Shown in pieces: positions 15,347 through 59,916 of a stretch of 64,000 nt of DNA. The translations under genes were made by a program, and so were the position numbers. The notes below the pieces were generated by a model. That model worked only from the letters and a program-made list of their open reading frames with translations. It did not search any database and was not told where the DNA came from. Numbering within the stretch: position 1 is the stretch's first letter; each line of letters starts with the position of its first letter. The DNA is taken from the NCBI RefSeq assembly GCF_058153355.1, contig NZ_CM177019.1; one strand, given 5' to 3'.

Positions 15347-15458
15347 CCCCGGCTAGACCGGGGTGCGCGAATACTGCGCCAACACCAGGGAAATCTTGGC
15401 TGCGCCGTAAATTATTATGATGAGTTACAAGGGCACAGCACTGTTTTTCAGGCCGCAC
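15338..15458 (-). ncRNA. arcZ: ArcZ small RNA (Hfq-dependent), antisense to the arcB 3' end
   Basis: The reverse complement of ~15338-15458 matches the ArcZ sequence as I recall it (GTGCGGCCTGAAAAACAGTGCTGTGCCCTTGTAACTCATCATAATAATTTACGGCGCAGCCAAGATTTCCCTGGTGTTGGCGCAGTATTCGCGCACCCCGGTCTAGCCGGGGTCATTTTTT), with terminator hairpin CCCCGG/CCGGGG and T-run overlapping the arcB stop. Confidence 0.75.
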
Positions 15459-36927: not shown

Positions 36928-37009
36928 AATCTCGCGCTAACAACCTGGAATCGAGCCGTCATACTACGGCGCAACGCCCTATAAAGTAAACGATGACCCT
37001 TCGGGAACT

Positions 37010-37080
37010 TCAGGGTAAAATGACTATCAAAATGTGAATTGTAGCTGACCTGGGACTTGTACCCGGGTCGGTATTTTTTT
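37010..37080 (+). ncRNA. graL: greA leader region with intrinsic attenuator (GraL-type leader RNA)
   Basis: Hairpin GACCTGGG…CCCGGGTC followed by TATTTTTTT about 100 nt upstream of the greA start; a leader-derived sRNA is described for greA. Exact ends not determinable from sequence. Confidence 0.4.
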
Positions 37081-43853: not shown

Positions 43854-44274
43854 TCGTTTTGGTTCTGGTCTGAGGAATGGTTGTCAGGTATCTGTATCTC
43901 GTCCAGTTGCTTTACTCGTAGCTGGTACTTTGAAACGATGGTGCCGGTACGCCTTAGTTATAAACTTTTCCCTACTGCTGACATAATTGGCACTTTATTG
44001 TGTCAACTCCAGTTCCGGTACGAATACGGATATGTTTACTTCTCGATAAACCATCCTGCTCCTGTCAGTATAACTACTGATGGCTACGTTCTGCGTAATG
44101 TTTAGAGACGCATTGATAATGTTATTTAATTACTGAGAACAATGGCCGCATCATTTAAAAAGAAAAAACTAACAGTGTTTCGGTCTGATATGGATCAGCG
44201 TTGAAAAACATGTCTGATATAAAATTGAACATTGTTGATAATTGTTTATATTGGTTGTGAACTTGGATTTCTGG

Positions 44275-45900
44275 ATGACAGTATTCAACAAATTTGTTAG
44301 AAGTTTTAAATCTCATTGGTTGTTGTATCTTTGTGTTATTGTTTTTGGTATTACGAACTTAGTCGCCTCTTCCGGAGCGCATATGGTTCAGCGATTGCTG
44401 TTCTTCGTTCTGACCATCCTAGTTGTTAAACGTATATCATCCCTTCCGCTTCGCCTGCTTGTTGCCGCACCATTTGTGTTACTGACAGCGGCAGACATGA
44501 GTATTAGCCTCTATTCATGGTGTACCTTTGGTACAACTTTCAATGATGGATTTGCGATTAGTGTGCTGCAGAGTGATCCGGATGAAGTTGTCAAAATGCT
44601 GGGGATGTATATCCCTTATCTATGTGCTTTTGCCTTTTTATCCCTTCTTTTTTTGGCAGTAATAATAAAATATGATGTTTCCTTGCCGACGAAAAAAGTG
44701 ACAGGAATATTATTGCTGATTGTCATTTCGGGCAGTTTATTTTCCGCTTGTCAATTTGCTTATAAAGATGCAAAAAATAAAAAAGCGTTCAGTCCATATA
44801 TACTAGCGTCGCGATTTGCTACCTATACACCGTTTTTCAATCTCAATTATTTTGCTTTAGCAGCGAAAGAGCATCAAAGATTACTCTCAATTGCAAACAC
44901 GGTGCCGAATTTTCAATTATCAGTCAGGGATACAGGTATTGATACCTACGTGTTGATTGTGGGGGAGTCTGTACGTGTCGACAATATGTCTTTGTATGGA
45001 TATACACGCTCTACGACACCGCAAGTCGAAGCACAAAGAAAACAGATCAAACTGTTTAATCAAGCAATAAGCGGTGCACCTTACACTGCGCTGTCGGTTC
45101 CCCTTTCTTTAACTGCTGATTCTGTTTTGAGTCATGACATTCATAATTACCCGGACAACATTATTAATATGGCTAATCAAGCAGGATTTCAGACTTTCTG
45201 GCTAAGCTCGCAATCCGCTTTTCGGCAGAATGGTACAGCAGTTACCAGTATCGCCATGCGCGCCATGGAAACAGTCTATGTCAGAGGATTTGATGAATTG
45301 TTGTTGCCGCATTTATCGCAAGCGTTACAGCAAAAGACGCAGCAAAAGAAACTGATTGTTCTTCATTTAAATGGAAGCCATGAACCGGCTTGTAGCGCCT
45401 ATCTGCAATCCAGCGCCGTGTTTCAACCACAGGACGATCAGGATGCCTGCTATGACAACTCCATTCATTACACAGATAGTTTGCTAGGTCAGGTTTTTGA
45501 ATTATTAAAAGATCGCCGAGCCTCGGTCATGTATTTTGCCGACCATGGCCTGGAACGCGACCCGACGAAGAAGAACATTTATTTTCATGGAGGCAGGGAG
45601 GCCAGCCAGCAGGCATATCATGTTCCGATGTTTATCTGGTATAGCCCCGTTCTTGGGGATGGCGTGGATCGCACAACGGAAAACGATATCTTTTCCACTG
45701 CTTACAATAATTACCTTATTAATGCGTGGATGGGGGTAACAAAGCCGGAACAGCCGCAAACGCTGGAGGAAGTGATTGCACACTATAAAGGAGACTCACG
45801 GGTTGTAGATGCAAACCATGATGTTTTCGATTTTGTGATGCTAAGAAAGGAGTTTACTGAGGATAAGCAAGGTAACCCCACCCCTGAAGGGCAGGGTTGA
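44275..45900 (+). CDS. yhbX: Inner-membrane sulfatase-domain protein, phosphoethanolamine-transferase (EptA/EptB/OpgE) family
   Basis: ORF 44242..45900; conserved start MTVFNKFVRSFKSHWLL at ATG 44275; N-terminal TM helices then sulfatase-like domain; strongly AT-rich relative to neighbours. Confidence 0.75.
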   Translation: MTVFNKFVRSFKSHWLLYLCVIVFGITNLVASSGAHMVQRLLFFVLTILVVKRISSLPLRLLVAAPFVLLTAADMSISLYSWCTFGTTFNDGFAISVLQSDPDEVVKMLGMYIPYLCAFAFLSLLFLAVIIKYDVSLPTKKVTGILLLIVISGSLFSACQFAYKDAKNKKAFSPYILASRFATYTPFFNLNYFALAAKEHQRLLSIANTVPNFQLSVRDTGIDTYVLIVGESVRVDNMSLYGYTRSTTPQVEAQRKQIKLFNQAISGAPYTALSVPLSLTADSVLSHDIHNYPDNIINMANQAGFQTFWLSSQSAFRQNGTAVTSIAMRAMETVYVRGFDELLLPHLSQALQQKTQQKKLIVLHLNGSHEPACSAYLQSSAVFQPQDDQDACYDNSIHYTDSLLGQVFELLKDRRASVMYFADHGLERDPTKKNIYFHGGREASQQAYHVPMFIWYSPVLGDGVDRTTENDIFSTAYNNYLINAWMGVTKPEQPQTLEEVIAHYKGDSRVVDANHDVFDFVMLRKEFTEDKQGNPTPEGQG

Positions 45901-45907
45901 TGTCGAA

Positions 45908-47266
<1,359 letters not shown>

Positions 47267-47299
47267 TTAATTAACTGATGATGAGCCTGGATTTCCGCT

Positions 47300-47350
47300 C
47301 TAACTGAATTTTTATGCAAAATAAATGAGTTTTCATTTAATCATCTTTTA
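47300..47350. promoter_or_regulatory. Putative ArgR operator (ARG boxes) in the argG promoter region
   Basis: AT-rich TGAATTTTTATGCA … ATGAGTTTTCATTTA resembling paired ARG boxes upstream of argG; assignment by pattern only. Confidence 0.4.
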
Positions 47351-47476
47351 TCGGTGACAGGAAGAGTTTAGTGTGTTTTTTGTAAAATAATGCGCTTAAG
47401 GAGGAGCAGTAGAGGGCAAAAGTATTCGACAAACGAAAGTGAACTGGATATTCATTCACGCGATTAGCAATAAATG

Positions 47477-47506
47477 TTGACAAAATGTGGCGTGGATCAC
47501 TATAAT
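47477..47506 (+). promoter_or_regulatory. Sigma-70 promoter (upstream metY promoter): TTGACA-18 bp-TATAAT
   Basis: Consensus hexamers TTGACA (47477-47482) and TATAAT (47501-47506) read directly. Confidence 0.6.
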
Positions 47507-47554
47507 GACTGCAGATTTTACGTCCCGTCTCGGTACACCAAATCCCAGCAGTAT

Positions 47555-47583
47555 TTGCATTTTTTACCCAAAACGAGTAGAAT
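47555..47583 (+). promoter_or_regulatory. Sigma-70 promoter immediately upstream of metY: TTGCAT-17 bp-TAGAAT
   Basis: Hexamers at 47555-47560 and 47578-47583; -10 is ~15 nt before the tRNA 5' end. Confidence 0.65.
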
Positions 47584-47598
47584 TTGCCACGTTTCAGG

Positions 47599-47675
<77 letters not shown>

Positions 47676-47797
47676 CTTTCCCTTAGAGTCCTTTTTCAAA
47701 TATACTGTGAAGACTTCGGCCTTCGTAGTGGGATTTGAAAAAATCCTTCTGGAAAGTGCTCCAGACCGCAGTTGCGGTTATAGGGTTCAGTTATATA

Positions 47798-47822
47798 AAG
47801 CCCCGATTTATCGGGGTTTTTT
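47798..47822 (+). terminator. Intrinsic terminator/attenuator between metY and rimP
   Basis: AAAGCCCCGA-TTTA-TCGGGG followed by TTTTTT. Confidence 0.65.
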
Positions 47823-47881
47823 GTTATCTGACTACAGAATAACTGGGCTTTAGGCCCTTTTTTTATGTCTTGGGGGTGGGC

Positions 47882-48334
47882 TTGTCCACATTAGAGCAAA
47901 AATTAACAGAGATGATTACTGCGCCAGTTGAGGCCCTGGGTTTTGAACTGGTTGGCATCGAGTTTATTCGCGGTCGCACATCCACACTGCGCATCTATAT
48001 TGATAGTGAAGATGGCATCAATGTTGATGATTGTGCTGATGTGAGCCACCAGGTAAGTGCTGTGCTGGATGTCGAAGATCCCATCACCGTGGCTTATAAC
48101 CTGGAAGTCTCCTCACCGGGTCTCGATCGCCCACTGTTCACGGCTGAACACTACGCCCGTTTCGTCGGAGAAGAGGTGACTCTGGTTCTCCGTATGGCGG
48201 TACAAAACCGTCGTAAATGGCAGGGCGTTATCAAAGCGGTAGACGGTGAAATGATCACAGTTACCGTCGAAGGTAAAGATGAAGTGTTCGCGCTGAGTAA
48301 TATCCAGAAGGCGAACCTGGTTCCCCACTTTTAA
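47882..48334 (+). CDS. rimP: Ribosome maturation factor RimP
   Basis: ORF 47870..48334; conserved N-terminus (M)[22 protein letters not shown] begins at TTG 47882; 150 aa. Confidence 0.8.
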
Positions 48335-48361
48335 TAGTCTGGATGAGGTGAAAAGCCCGCG

Positions 48362-49849
<1,488 letters not shown>

Positions 49850-49873
49850 TAAACTGTAGCAGGAAGGAACAGC

Positions 49874-52546
49874 ATGACAGATGTAACGATTAAAACGCTG
49901 GCCGCAGAGCGACAGACCTCCGTGGAACGCCTGGTACAGCAATTTGCTGATGCAGGTATCCGGAAGTCTGCTGACGACTCTGTGTCCGCACAAGAGAAAC
50001 AGACTTTAATTGACCACCTGAATCAGAAAAATTCAGGCCCGGACAAATTAACGCTGCAACGTAAAACCCGCAGCACCCTTAACATTCCTGGTACCGGTGG
50101 AAAAAGCAAATCGGTACAAATCGAAGTCCGCAAGAAACGCACCTTTGTGAAACGCGATCCGCAAGAGGCTGAACGCCTTGCTGCGGAAGAGCAGGCGCAG
50201 CGTGAAGCGGAAGAGCAAGCCCGTCGTGAGGCAGAAGAATCGGCCAAACGCGAGGCGCAACAAAAAGCTGAACGTGAGGCCGCAGAACAAGCTAAGCGTG
50301 AAGCCGCTGAACAAGCGAAACGTGAAGCTGCGGAAAAAGACAAAGTGAGCAATCAACAAGACGATATGACTAAAAACGCCCAGGCTGAAAAAGCCCGCCG
50401 TGAGCAGGAAGCTGCAGAGCTCAAGCGTAAAGCTGAAGAAGAAGCGCGTCGTAAACTCGAAGAAGAAGCACGTCGCGTTGCTGAAGAAGCACGTCGTATG
50501 GCGGAAGAAAACAAATGGACTGATAACGCGGAACCGACTGAAGATTCCAGCGATTATCACGTTACTACTTCTCAACATGCTCGCCAGGCAGAAGACGAAA
50601 GCGATCGTGAAGTCGAAGGCGGCCGTGGCCGTGGTCGTAACGCGAAAGCAGCGCGTCCGAAGAAAGGCAACAAACACTCTGAATCAAAAGCTGATCGTGA
50701 AGAAGCACGCGCAGCAGTACGTGGCGGTAAAGGCGGGAAACGTAAAGGTTCTTCGCTGCAGCAAGGCTTCCAGAAGCCAGCTCAGGCCGTTAACCGTGAC
50801 GTTGTGATTGGCGAAACCATCACCGTTGGCGAACTGGCGAACAAGATGGCGGTTAAAGGTTCTCAGGTCATCAAAGCGATGATGAAACTGGGCGCAATGG
50901 CAACCATCAACCAGGTTATCGATCAGGAAACCGCACAGCTGGTTGCTGAAGAGATGGGCCACAAAGTTATCCTGCGTCGTGAAAACGAGCTGGAAGAAGC
51001 GGTAATGAGCGACCGTGACACGGGTGCTGCGGCTGAACCGCGCGCGCCGGTTGTGACCATCATGGGTCACGTTGACCACGGTAAAACCTCTTTGCTGGAC
51101 TACATTCGTTCAACGAAAGTGGCCTCTGGCGAAGCGGGCGGCATTACCCAGCACATTGGTGCATACCACGTTGAAACTGAAAACGGCATGATCACCTTCC
51201 TGGACACCCCGGGGCACGCCGCGTTTACTTCAATGCGTGCACGTGGTGCGCAGGCAACGGACATCGTAGTCCTGGTTGTTGCTGCCGACGACGGCGTAAT
51301 GCCGCAGACCATCGAAGCAATTCAGCACGCGAAAGCGGCAGGCGTGCCGGTTGTGGTTGCAGTGAACAAGATCGACAAACCAGAAGCCGATCCAGATCGC
51401 GTTAAGAACGAACTCTCTCAGTACGGCATCCTGCCGGAAGAGTGGGGCGGTGAAAGCCAGTTCGTACACGTGTCTGCGAAAGCAGGTACCGGTATCGATG
51501 AACTGCTGGACGCTATCCTGTTGCAGGCAGAAGTTCTGGAACTGAAAGCGGTACGTAAAGGTATGGCGAGCGGTGCGGTTATCGAATCCTTCCTCGATAA
51601 AGGTCGTGGTCCGGTTGCTACTGTTCTGGTACGTGAAGGTACTCTGCACAAGGGCGACATCGTTCTGTGTGGTTTCGAATACGGTCGTGTTCGCGCAATG
51701 CGTAACGAAATGGGTCAGGAAGTGCTGGAAGCAGGTCCGTCCATTCCAGTTGAAATCCTTGGCTTGTCCGGTGTTCCGGCAGCGGGTGACGAAGTTACCG
51801 TAGTGCGTGACGAGAAGAAAGCACGTGAAGTTGCACTGTATCGTCAGGGCAAATTCCGTGAAGTTAAACTGGCACGTCAGCAGAAATCGAAACTCGAGAA
51901 CATGTTCGCCAACATGACCGAAGGCGAAGTTCACGAAGTGAACATCGTTCTGAAGGCAGACGTTCAGGGTTCCGTGGAAGCGATCTCCGACTCCTTGCTG
52001 AAACTGTCTACTGACGAAGTTAAAGTGAAGATCATCGGTTCTGGCGTAGGTGGTATCACCGAAACCGACGCTACCCTGGCTGCGGCGTCCAACGCCATCC
52101 TGGTTGGCTTCAACGTACGTGCTGATGCCTCTGCACGTAAAGTGATTGAAGCGGAAAGCCTGGATCTGCGTTACTACTCCGTCATCTATAACCTGATCGA
52201 CGAAGTGAAAGCGGCGATGAGCGGTATGCTGTCTCCGGAACTGAAACAGCAGATTATCGGTCTGGCGGAAGTTCGTGATGTGTTCAAATCACCGAAATTT
52301 GGTGCCATCGCAGGTTGTATGGTTACTGAAGGTGTGGTTAAACGTCACAACCCGATCCGCGTTCTGCGCGACAACGTGGTTATCTACGAAGGCGAGCTGG
52401 AGTCCCTGCGCCGCTTCAAAGATGACGTTAACGAAGTCCGTAACGGTATGGAATGTGGTATCGGCGTTAAGAACTACAACGACGTCCGCACTGGCGATGT
52501 GATCGAAGTATTCGAAATCATCGAGATCCAACGTACCATCGCTTAA
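49874..52546 (+). CDS. infB: Translation initiation factor IF-2
   Basis: 890-aa ORF; repetitive charged N-terminal region, GTPase domain ([18 protein letters not shown]). Confidence 0.95.
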
Positions 52547-52562: not shown

Positions 52563-52636
52563 TGCGGGATAAGGCGTTTACGCTGCATCCGGCATGGATT
52601 GCCTGATGCGACGCTGGCGCGTCTTATCAGGCCTAC
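52563..52636. repeat. Pair of inverted REP elements (BIME-like) between infB and rbfA
   Basis: TGCGGGATAAGGCGTTTACGCTGCATCCGGCA and GCCTGATGCGACGCTGGCGCGTCTTATCAGGCCTAC read directly. Confidence 0.75.
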
Positions 52637-54107: not shown

Positions 54108-54473
<366 letters not shown>

Positions 54474-54490
54474 TTCTTGCGAGTTTCAGA

Positions 54491-54516
54491 AAAGGGGCCT
54501 GAGTGGCCCCTTTTTT
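54491..54516 (+). terminator. rpsO rho-independent terminator
   Basis: AAAAGGGGCC-TGAGT-GGCCCC followed by TTTTTT. Confidence 0.85.
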
Positions 54517-54519
54517 CAA

Positions 54520-54718
54520 ACTGACGGCAGCAATTCACTGGAAACTAATGTATTGTTGCTATGAATGATCTTCCGTTGCAGAGGTTCGCGCGGCTAATGA
54601 GAGGCTTTACCCACATTGGGCTGGGTTAGGGTTGTCATTAGTCGCGAGGATGCGCAGAAGATCGGGTATTAACACCAGTGCCGTAAGGTGCTGTCTAAGA
54701 AAGAGAAAGGATATTACA
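54520..54718 (+). promoter_or_regulatory. pnp promoter/leader with long stem-loop (autoregulatory RNase III-processed leader in E. coli)
   Basis: ~200-nt untranslated region ending at a UUG start; extended pairing potential across 54590-54680; function assigned from what is known of pnp regulation. Confidence 0.55.
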
Positions 54719-57953: not shown

Positions 57954-58034
57954 ATGAAAATTGCTGATCAATTTCATGATGAGTTATGTAGACTGGCCGC
58001 CATTAATTTTGAGGCACACGTACTACATGGCTGA
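57954..58034 (+). CDS. yrbN: Small ORF (26 aa) in the deaD leader, overlapping the deaD start codon
   Basis: ATG 57954 … TGA 58032-58034 encodes [26 protein letters not shown], consistent with the small protein YrbN as I recall it; below the ORF-track size cutoff. Confidence 0.5.
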
Positions 58035-59916
58035 ATTCGAAACCACTTTTGCAGATCTGGGCCTGAAGGCTCCTATCCTTGAAGCCCTTAACGATCTGGG
58101 TTACGAAAAACCATCTCCAATTCAGGCAGAGTGTATTCCACATCTGCTGAATGGCCGCGACGTTCTGGGTATGGCCCAGACGGGGAGCGGAAAAACTGCA
58201 GCATTCTCTTTACCTCTGCTGCAAAATCTTGATCCTGAGCTGAAAGCACCACAGATTCTGGTGCTGGCACCGACCCGCGAACTGGCGGTACAGGTTGCTG
58301 AGGCAATGACGGATTTCTCTAAACACATGCGCGGCGTAAACGTGGTTGCCCTGTACGGCGGCCAGCGTTATGACGTGCAATTACGCGCCCTGCGTCAGGG
58401 GCCGCAGATCGTTGTCGGTACTCCAGGCCGTCTGCTGGACCACCTGAAACGTGGCACTCTGGACCTCTCTAAACTGAGCGGTCTGGTTCTGGATGAAGCT
58501 GACGAAATGCTGCGCATGGGCTTCATCGAAGACGTTGAAACCATTATGGCGCAGATCCCGGAAGGTCATCAGACCGCTCTGTTCTCTGCAACTATGCCGG
58601 AAGCGATTCGTCGTATTACCCGCCGCTTTATGAAAGAGCCGCAGGAAGTGCGCATTCAGTCCAGCGTGACTACCCGTCCTGACATCAGCCAGAGCTACTG
58701 GACTGTGTGGGGGATGCGTAAAAACGAAGCACTGGTACGTTTCCTGGAAGCGGAAGATTTTGATGCGGCGATTATCTTCGTTCGTACCAAAAACGCGACT
58801 TTGGAAGTGGCAGAAGCTCTTGAGCGTAACGGCTACAACAGCGCTGCACTGAACGGTGACATGAACCAGGCGCTGCGTGAGCAGACGCTGGAACGCCTGA
58901 AAGATGGTCGTCTGGATATCCTGATTGCGACCGACGTTGCGGCCCGTGGCCTGGACGTTGAGCGTATCAGCCTGGTAGTTAACTACGATATCCCGATGGA
59001 TTCTGAGTCTTACGTTCACCGTATTGGTCGTACCGGCCGTGCGGGGCGTGCTGGTCGTGCGCTGCTGTTCGTTGAGAACCGCGAGCGTCGTCTGCTGCGC
59101 AACATTGAACGCACTATGAAGCTGACCATTCCGGAAGTAGAACTGCCGAACGCAGAGCTGCTGGGCAAACGCCGTCTGGAAAAATTCGCCGCTAAAGTAC
59201 AGCAGCAGCTGGAAAGCAGCGATCTGGATCAATACCGTGCACTGCTGAGCAAAATTCAGCCGACTGCAGAAGGTGAAGAGCTGGATCTCGAAACTCTGGC
59301 AGCCGCACTGCTGAAAATGGCACAGGGTGAACGTACTCTGATCGTGCCGCCAGATGCGCCGATGCGTCCGAAACGTGAATTCCGCGACCGTGACGACCGT
59401 GGTCCGCGCGATCGTAACGACCGTGGCCCGCGTGGCGACCGTGAAGATCGTCCGCGTCGTGAACGTCGTGATGTTGGCGATATGCAGCTGTACCGTATTG
59501 AAGTGGGCCGCGATGATGGTGTTGAAGTTCGTCATATCGTTGGCGCGATTGCTAACGAAGGCGACATCAGCAGCCGTTACATCGGTAATATCAAGCTGTT
59601 TGCTTCTCACTCCACCATCGAACTGCCGAAAGGTATGCCGGGTGAAGTGCTGCAACACTTTACGCGTACTCGCATTCTTAACAAGCCGATGAACATGCAG
59701 TTGCTGGGCGATGCACAGCCGCATACTGGTGGTGAGCGTCGTGGCGGTGGTCGTGGTTTCGGTGGCGAACGTCGTGAAGGCGGTCGTAACTTCAGCGGTG
59801 AACGCCGTGAAGGTGGTCGTGGTGATGGTCGTCGTTTTAGCGGCGAACGTCGTGAAGGCCGCGCACCGCGCCGTGATGACTCTACCGGTCGTCGTCGTTT
59901 CGGTGGTGATGCGTAA
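58027..59916 (+). CDS. deaD: Cold-shock DEAD-box RNA helicase
   Basis: ORF 57961..59916; conserved start [21 protein letters not shown] at ATG 58027; motifs [25 protein letters not shown]; Arg/Gly-rich C-terminal tail; 629 aa. Confidence 0.9.

Follow-up and report, generated by a model that had tools for sequence, protein, structure and literature searches.

In Escherichia coli (K-12/BW25113), the infB gene produces translation initiation factor IF2 in three forms, IF2-alpha, IF2-beta and IF2-gamma, by independent initiation at AUG-1, GUG-158 and AUG-165, and the large and small forms, which are roughly equimolar, are both required for optimal growth (Madison et al. 2012; PMC12297416). The tandem isoforms of E. 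coli are also the subject of Plumbridge et al. 1985, Nyengaard et al. 1991 and Sacerdot et al. 1992, and a 2026 N-terminomics paper names the internal GUG158 and AUG165. Here we analyzed a 64,000-nucleotide stretch of contig NZ_CM177019.1 (RefSeq assembly GCF_058153355.1), referred to below as the window, in which the original prediction had flagged positions 50150-50520 as imperfect tandem repeats within infB. We conclude, with a probability of about 0.9, that this feature represents the enterobacteria-type extension at the N-terminus of E. coli IF2, as encoded by infB, with its repeats and internal starts arranged as described below. Repeats, charged region and internal starts are all already known from publications going back to the 1980s; the feature as first noted re-identifies a classic case of one gene with several protein forms, and changes nothing in it. 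Sacerdot and colleagues reportedly remarked on the unusual repetitive region of IF2 in 1984.

Internal in-frame starts that yield a form lacking an N-terminal interaction module are also found in clpB, mrcB and clpA; infB differs from these in that the final unit of a tandem repeat contains its internal start, and in having two starts, a GUG followed by an AUG seven codons on. The IF2 orthologue eIF5B (PMC10680144; "Type 7" in PMC12919033) likewise carries a lineage-specific, charged, low-complexity N-terminal extension on a GTPase core. The extensions of eIF5B and IF2 are both dispensable for core initiation and linked to stress and granule formation, and we liken them without any claim of sequence homology. 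eIF5B is not known to arise as tandem isoforms from internal starts. The closest system is the infB gene of E. coli K-12 itself, with which the window gene agrees in identity, length, operon, protein-level repeat units and the GTG-158 and ATG-165 codons. The features of the window gene are as follows, all on the plus strand.

49874..52546, plus strand: infB coding sequence (IF2-alpha/IF2-1, 890 codons plus stop), from the open reading frame (ORF) list, translation, megablast and Pfam.
49877..50023, plus strand: N1 (IF2N) compact subdomain, residues 2-50, present in IF2-alpha only, from a match to PDB 1ND9 (E=2.4e-23).
50159..50521, plus strand: predicted continuous charged alpha-helix, residues 96-216, spanning both repeat blocks and both internal starts, from an AlphaFold2 single-sequence model.
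50183..50350, plus strand: repeat block A, seven tandem 24-nucleotide (8-residue) units, codons 104-159, the last degenerate, from Tandem Repeats Finder (TRF), a register listing and shuffles.
50198..50214, plus strand: second invariant patch, CAGCGTGAAGCGGAAGA, codons 109-114, nucleotide-invariant in seven genera.
50325..50385, plus strand: A-rich (46% A), poorly structured mRNA around both internal starts, from composition and RNAplfold-type accessibility.
50327..50348, plus strand: conserved IF2-beta initiation region on the last repeat unit, GCTGCGGAAAAAGACAAAGTGA, from a GTG-anchored codon alignment.
50345..50347, plus strand: GTG codon 158, start of IF2-beta (IF2-2), from the sequence, a start-codon scan and literature positions.
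50366..50368, plus strand: ATG codon 165, start of IF2-gamma (IF2-3), from the same three sources.
50426..50509, plus strand: repeat block B, looser, with period 24 and then 21, codons 185-212 in domain II, from TRF and a repeat-family search.

The assignment of the gene as infB is secure. The flagged span corresponds to codons 93-216 of an 890-codon ORF, and megablast of that ORF found infB in 5,425 of 5,426 complete E. coli genomes, with every match annotated as translation initiation factor IF-2. One of these, NZ_CM148325.1, carries an infB that is 100% identical to the window ORF and bears the same RefSeq label; its gene order is tRNA-Met (metY), rimP, nusA, infB, rbfA, truB, rpsO, pnp, nlpI and deaD, so that, by RefSeq annotation of the identical locus, infB occupies its operon position in the order metY-rimP-nusA-infB-rbfA-truB. 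The domain architecture of the window protein is that of IF2: above curated Pfam cut-offs it contains IF2_assoc (56-94), IF2_N (two stretches, the best at residues 314-364), GTP_EFTU (393-549), EF-G_D2 (565-644), IF-2 (665-779) and GTP_EFTU_D2 (810-877), and it matches full-length E. coli IF2 chains in PDB with E=2e-177. Relative to K-12 infB there are 74 nucleotide differences (97.2% identity, 2.8% divergence), and 887 of 890 residues are identical; the three substitutions (A269S, Q490G and L613M) lie outside the repeat region, leaving the flagged feature identical at the protein level. Within 50100-50560 there are four differences from K-12, all synonymous, and 50306-50560 is identical. Two minus-strand ORFs, at 50023-50352 and 50048-50677, were rejected as mechanical by-products of the GAA/GCN-rich sense strand inside the confirmed infB, because all four K-12 differences there are synonymous in the infB frame.

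The original prediction held that the repeats encode the charged N-terminal region of IF2, and gene identity, Pfam and the K-12 comparison all bear this out; the peptide that it quoted is found within codons 93-216. Its two quoted 24-mers were located at 50285-50308 and 50309-50332, where 21 of 24 bases match and both encode AAEQAKRE, in a shifted register. The unit type of block A is AEEQAxRE (8 residues). TRF reported period-24 arrays at 50183-50238, 50265-50339 and 50426-50489 and a period-21 array at 50462-50509, and the repeat-family search joined blocks A and B in one family with eight copies at 24-nucleotide spacing. Of the unit length of about 24-27 nucleotides originally proposed, the 24-nucleotide period is thus confirmed (24 and 21 in block B), whereas a 27-nucleotide period was not found. 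Self-similarity is significant: lag-24 nucleotide identity in block A is 0.688, against 0.370±0.042 in codon-order shuffles (z=7.6, 0/5000), with corresponding values of 0.545 against 0.345±0.026 (z=7.6) for the whole flagged span and 0.556 against 0.334±0.060 (z=3.7, 3/5000) for block B. Even with the lag left free between 6 and 60 and the best value taken, none of 3000 shuffles reached the observed one. The ten top lag-24 windows of infB all fall at 50201-50228, and only the infB repeat locus and the 3′ end of deaD reach a TRF score of at least 60 in the 64-kb window. The units nevertheless share just 62-88% identity, and the longest exact direct repeat is 14 nucleotides (at 50462/50483). 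A third small tandem repeat of infB, with period 18, 2.1 copies and a TRF score of 46, lies in domain II at 50591-50627, downstream of the flagged span.

The nucleotide periodicity is wholly protein-driven. In synonymous resampling, where the protein was kept fixed and each codon redrawn from the codon usage of infB itself, lag-24 identity was 0.668±0.023, and 24% of resamples reached the observed value. Where units share an amino acid, 40 of 100 codon pairs are identical, against 49.9 expected, and the two AAEQAKRE units, identical as protein, differ at three of eight codons. Since synonymous resampling reproduces the periodicity, the nucleotide repeat simply mirrors one that arose long ago in the protein: codons 104-159 form an in-frame array of ancient origin, whose synonymous sites have been randomized between units. 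Recent DNA duplication is rejected on the resampling together with the absence of any raised codon sharing, and no trace of gene conversion is seen.

The charged segment is predicted to be helical. An AlphaFold2 single-sequence model of residues 1-382 gave one unbroken helix over residues 96-216, with a predicted local distance difference test (pLDDT) score of 84-94 in the blocks, almost coincident with the flagged span; ahead of this helix the same model places the helices of N1 and, over IF2_assoc, a beta hairpin, and behind it a low-confidence region. Residues 96-216 are 53% charged (E 26%, A 24%, R 14%, K 10% and Q 10%), and contain 18 E/D(i) to K/R(i+4) pairs, against 8.2±2.1 in shuffles (0/5000). 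Only 8 of the 121 residues are hydrophobic, with a periodicity of 8 and no heptad seam. Composition and charge pairing are therefore those of an ER/K single alpha-helix, and we infer that residues 96-216 would form either such a helix or a helix-rich flexible linker. Domains I-III are said to have been described by Laursen and colleagues in 2004 as having substantial helical content that melts above 35 °C. The ER/K helices of the CAF-1 KER (PMC10335832) and of DBHS proteins (PMC4647456) resemble this region in being rich in E, K, R, A and Q with dense i to i+4 pairs, in lacking a hydrophobic seam and in having a long, unbroken predicted helix as an interdomain spacer, although the region of IF2 has been published as a flexible, partly helical or disordered linker (PMC12297416; PMC12919033; bioRxiv 10.1101/2025.02.02.631968). 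Our literature search returned nothing specific on the structure of the IF2N linker or on IF2 as a charged single helix.

The two ends of this segment have distinct published roles. Domain I, which contains N1, binds NusA (PMC12297416) and has been tied to genome-integrity phenotypes (Madison et al. 2012) and to cold-induced condensates (bioRxiv 10.1101/2025.02.02.631968). Lamotrigine targets domain II (158-290), where block B lies, and resistance arises by in-frame deletions (e.g., residues 176-192) or a short duplication in that domain; block B is kept in all IF2 isoforms.

The condensate work supports an alternative in which the charged repeats are chiefly a disordered, RNA-dependent phase-separation module important in the cold, their periodicity being incidental to composition. 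IF2-alpha condenses with RNA, puncta appear upon cold shock, and loss of the first 158 residues, as in the beta isoform, greatly reduces condensation (bioRxiv 10.1101/2025.02.02.631968); IF2 extensions are, in addition, rich in disorder-promoting residues (PMC12919033). A purely compositional origin is harder to reconcile with the strict 8-residue register, with i to i+4 pairing more than twice that expected from composition, and with the confident prediction of a 121-residue helix, which points to a constraint on sequence order beyond composition. We consider this alternative possible, though on the unlikely side, as the chief explanation. It is not mutually exclusive with a helical spacer, and is compatible with the reading of the segment as the repeat-bearing extension of IF2-alpha.

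The flagged span had also been said to coincide with the region of a published internal start, and this is correct: GTG-158 and ATG-165 are both in frame and inside 50150-50520. GTG-158 lies in the degenerate last unit of block A, and ATG-165 is 21 nucleotides downstream. Production of IF2-2 and IF2-3 is abolished by g474c and t494c (Madison et al. 2012); g474 is the third base of codon 158 (window position 50347) and t494 the second base of codon 165 (50367). Retapamulin ribosome profiling (Ribo-RET) shows peaks at the infB internal site (bioRxiv 10.1101/520783). The short isoforms would be expected from the window allele as well, given the local identity to K-12 and the known production of these forms in K-12.

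The check for a Shine-Dalgarno (SD) sequence near codon 158, proposed in the original prediction, gave a weak outcome. In the start-codon scan, no strong SD was found before GTG-158 or ATG-165, the anti-SD pairing energies being −3.5 and −2.3 kcal/mol, respectively, within the background over all infB codons (−2.5±1.9 kcal/mol) and compared with −6.5 kcal/mol for ATG-1. The best anti-SD duplex before GTG-158 is the GGA in GCGGAAAAAG, 11-13 nucleotides upstream. Canonical SD-led initiation is therefore not indicated for either internal start. The mRNA is instead open just downstream: of the 15 most accessible 25-nucleotide windows among 889, 9 come from codons 161-169, the window of ATG-165 is in 16th place, and 50325-50385 is unpaired in the minimum free energy fold. 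No sigma-70-like site for an internal promoter of a separate IF2-beta transcript was found in 49700-50700, which is consistent with the short forms arising from translation rather than transcription.

To compare the array across Enterobacterales, we searched with the protein sequence of residues 1-382, which retrieved IF2 N-terminal regions from many members of the order, of which 22 were inspected; codons were compared in seven enterobacterial genera (E. coli and DNA from six others), some represented by metagenome bins. The repeat array is present in all genera compared, with 7 to about 10 units (Citrobacter 7, Pantoea 7, Atlantibacter 8 and Proteus about 10). One record, an IF2 N-terminal fragment under the name Vibrio parahaemolyticus, hardly differs from the sequence of Proteus mirabilis and is likely mislabelled or contaminated.

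The valine at the end of the array (158) is encoded by GTG in all seven genera, so that the internal start is conserved throughout the comparison, and the GCGGAA of codons −5/−4 and the AAAGTGA are nucleotide-invariant in all seven. Among same-amino-acid pairs, the fraction of identical codons is 0.85 in the last unit plus GTG versus 0.48-0.50 in the upstream units. Synonymous identity peaks at 0.91-0.99 over residues 150-162, against a mean of 0.59±0.12 in 9-column windows, and the windows over residues 151-162 rank at the top of 362 (first 375 codons, seven genera). This is direct evidence, at the level of sequence comparison, that the mRNA as well as the protein is constrained at the IF2-beta start, and it agrees with the del1 allele, in which 32 nucleotides are left upstream of the IF2-2 start and IF2-2/3 are still expressed (Madison et al. 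2012). The equivalent of Met-165 is kept in only three of seven genera (E. coli, Citrobacter and Pantoea), and IF2-gamma is therefore a narrower feature. The mRNA requirements of the infB intracistronic site in enterobacteria were reportedly analyzed by Laursen and colleagues in Genes to Cells in 2002, and the synonymous conservation at GTG-158 is accordingly probably not new.

A second peak of synonymous conservation in the array (0.85-0.88 versus the mean of 0.59) is the patch at 50198-50214, which has CGTGAAGC.GCGGAA in common with the IF2-beta start region. A search for a complementary partner of the patch found none, and the local fold is not significant (z=−1.6). The patch may simply reflect preferred codons in a small sample of sequences.

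These observations bear on the possibility that the repeat is kept chiefly at the mRNA level, as a purine-rich, weakly structured run serving as a standby or landing platform for the 30S subunit, with the protein secondary. Purines make up 70% of the repeat block and T just 7%, neither internal start has a strong SD, and nucleotide-level conservation is seen both at the IF2-beta initiation region and at the second patch. Upstream of the last unit, however, the synonymous identity of 0.48-0.50 across genera indicates no mRNA constraint; the ordinary local fold also speaks against a platform, as does the continued production of IF2-2/3 from del1. We regard a platform as the main function of the array as improbable.

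Copy number varies within E. coli. A search for variants was prompted by an E. coli cluster representative lacking one unit; deletion and insertion alleles were compared with the E. coli genome collection, and eleven variants were verified by span or sequence. Six units, with unit 1 lost, are found in N18-04097, ETEC4077, ETEC4079 and Z1323PEC0008, the sole E. coli genomes with the deletion junction. Eight units result from duplication of unit 1 in BS74R-D, IAL7250, AST198 and XJ5.2, and from duplication of AQQKAERE in NR301. M15 has nine units (unit 1 duplicated and AAEQAKRE in triplicate), and CM185152.1 also has nine, judged from its 509-nucleotide span only. Every E. coli variant is a change of a whole 24-nucleotide unit upstream of GTG-158, leaving the last unit and the start context unchanged. 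Identity bands put the number of E. coli genomes that depart from the standard length in 50100-50560 at no more than about 58 of 5,425 (1.1%), and none of 40 records spread evenly down the identity ranking has a 24-nucleotide indel. The E. coli Nissle 1917 assembly NZ_CP007799.1 gives four matches to infB fragments, including a partial pseudogene (5112295-5113331) that carries a divergent six-unit array; this extra infB copy probably reflects misassembly or foreign DNA, not a genuine paralogue.

The existence of whole-unit variants with 6, 8 and 9 units in E. coli, and the variation in unit number among genera, are what would be expected if the array were a recently duplicated, hypervariable DNA minisatellite of the contingency type, switching copy number often. 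Contingency loci have near-identical DNA units and frequent copy-number polymorphism within a species; here the units are 62-88% identical with codon sharing at or below expectation, even the protein-identical AAEQAKRE pair differing at three of eight codons, exact repeats run to 14 nucleotides at most, and alleles with 6, 8 or 9 units are rare, at most about 58 of the 5,425 genomes being off seven units and the unit-1 deletion occurring in only four. On/off switching is moreover impossible with a unit length that is a multiple of three. Because the variants are all whole units but rare, slippage does occur, yet this is not a contingency locus, and we consider a minisatellite very improbable. 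The repeat is genuine and has its origin in the protein; it is not a mobile element, nor is it hypervariable.

The reading that we prefer, that of an ancient coding array in the N-terminal extension of IF2, would account for these observations as follows. The octad array would encode a long, charged, helical spacer keeping the N1 subdomain, which binds NusA, at a distance from the IF2 core. Initiation at codon 158 would halve the helix and remove N1, giving one isoform able to reach the transcription machinery and one unable to do so. The last repeat unit would double as the ribosome-loading region for the short forms, with the purine- and A-rich, unstructured context, rather than a strong SD, opening the internal start. 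Occasional in-register slippage would gain or lose helical units upstream of codon 158, and would alter IF2-alpha alone because the units are 24 nucleotides long, in frame and upstream of that codon. Several points weigh against parts of this scheme. The single helix is drawn from a single-sequence AlphaFold model and a charge-pattern count, two preprints call the region disordered or low-confidence with some helix (PMC12919033; bioRxiv 10.1101/2025.02.02.631968), and no solved structure resolving residues 96-216 was found in a PDB search or in PMC12919033. Exceptional accessibility is confined to the mRNA immediately 3′ of GTG-158, and the window over that codon ranks an ordinary 129th of 889. 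The synonymous-conservation result comes from seven taxa only, some of them metagenome bins, and alignment within the repeats is ambiguous, although the ungapped, GTG-anchored comparison avoids this ambiguity for the last 16 codons.

A more ambitious extension would be that the octad array acts as a slowly adjustable "ruler" for IF2-alpha and, separately, that the patch at codons 109-114 is an undescribed mRNA-level signal. The changes in unit number (6-9 in E. coli and 7-10 among genera) all lie upstream of GTG-158, and would therefore alter the length of the helix between N1 and the core without touching IF2-beta or IF2-gamma. If this were true, it could tune the bridging of RNA polymerase and the ribosome by IF2-alpha; we consider it improbable. 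Specialists may take an interest in the synonymous conservation at GUG-158, in the open, A-rich context with its weak SD and in the rare copy-number alleles specific to IF2-alpha; these bear on the links of IF2-alpha Domain I to NusA and to cold-induced condensates, and are incremental.

Independent initiation at GUG-158 was also weighed against reinitiation, in which IF2-beta would be made by ribosomes that translate a +1-frame ORF through the repeats and terminate at a UGA overlapping GUG-158 (GUGA). All seven genera have the GTGA, and in five the +1 frame stays open over 63-73 codons that include several GTG. In Proteus, however, the +1 frame is open for just 10 codons and has no start, and in one further taxon it is open for 38. 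An A at +4 is common to good start contexts generally, which weighs against a special role of the GUGA. The available part of the Ribo-RET study mentions no out-of-frame initiation in infB (bioRxiv 10.1101/520783), and del1 deletes most of the +1 ORF, yet IF2-2/3 persist (Madison et al. 2012). Reinitiation is thus largely refuted and barely credible. Equally hard to credit is a two-stranded coiled coil that dimerizes IF2, which has the long predicted helix in its favor but is contradicted by the scarcity of hydrophobic residues, the missing heptad a/d seam and a periodicity of 8 rather than 7.

The infB allele of the window is unusual in its distribution of differences: infB nucleotides 1351-2100 (window 51224-51973) hold 46 of the 74 differences from K-12, including Q490G and L613M, and identity of at least 99% over the whole of infB is found in only 18 of 5,425 E. 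coli genomes. The clustering suggests, from sequence comparison, a recombinant or mosaic allele in the part encoding the G-domain and domain 2. One plasmid record among the E. coli genome matches carries an infB match.

The other repeats with a high TRF score lie at 59383-59432 and 59728-59823, in the 3′ part of deaD (ORF 57961-59916), with period 24 (RDRNDRGP-type) and period 33; they encode the arginine/glycine-rich C-terminal tail of the DEAD-box helicase DeaD. In NZ_CM148325.1 there is no alignable counterpart of window positions 43860-44503, downstream of tRNA-Leu, which include the 5′ end of ORF 44242-45900 (a phosphoethanolamine transferase according to the annotation of NZ_CM148325.1), and 44503-49873 (5.4 kb, with argG, rimP and nusA) is just 91.6% identical, with 57 gap positions. 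By this alignment, 43860-49873 appears as a locally divergent segment beside the conserved operon. At about 4408, between nanQ and yhcG by comparison, NZ_CM148325.1 has approximately 250 bp that are missing from the window. The remaining features of the window are the following.

15351-15458, minus strand: ArcZ (Rfam).
36958-37079: greA leader (Rfam).
47599-47675: tRNA-Met, matching metY of the infB operon.
47764-47864: rimP leader (Rfam).
48362-49849: nusA ORF, upstream of infB and in operon order.
52563-52633: naRNA4 (RF02564, a REP-derived nucleoid-associated RNA family), in the infB-rbfA intergenic region (Rfam).
54146-54260: S15 leader (Rfam).
54489-54660, minus strand: SraG (Rfam).

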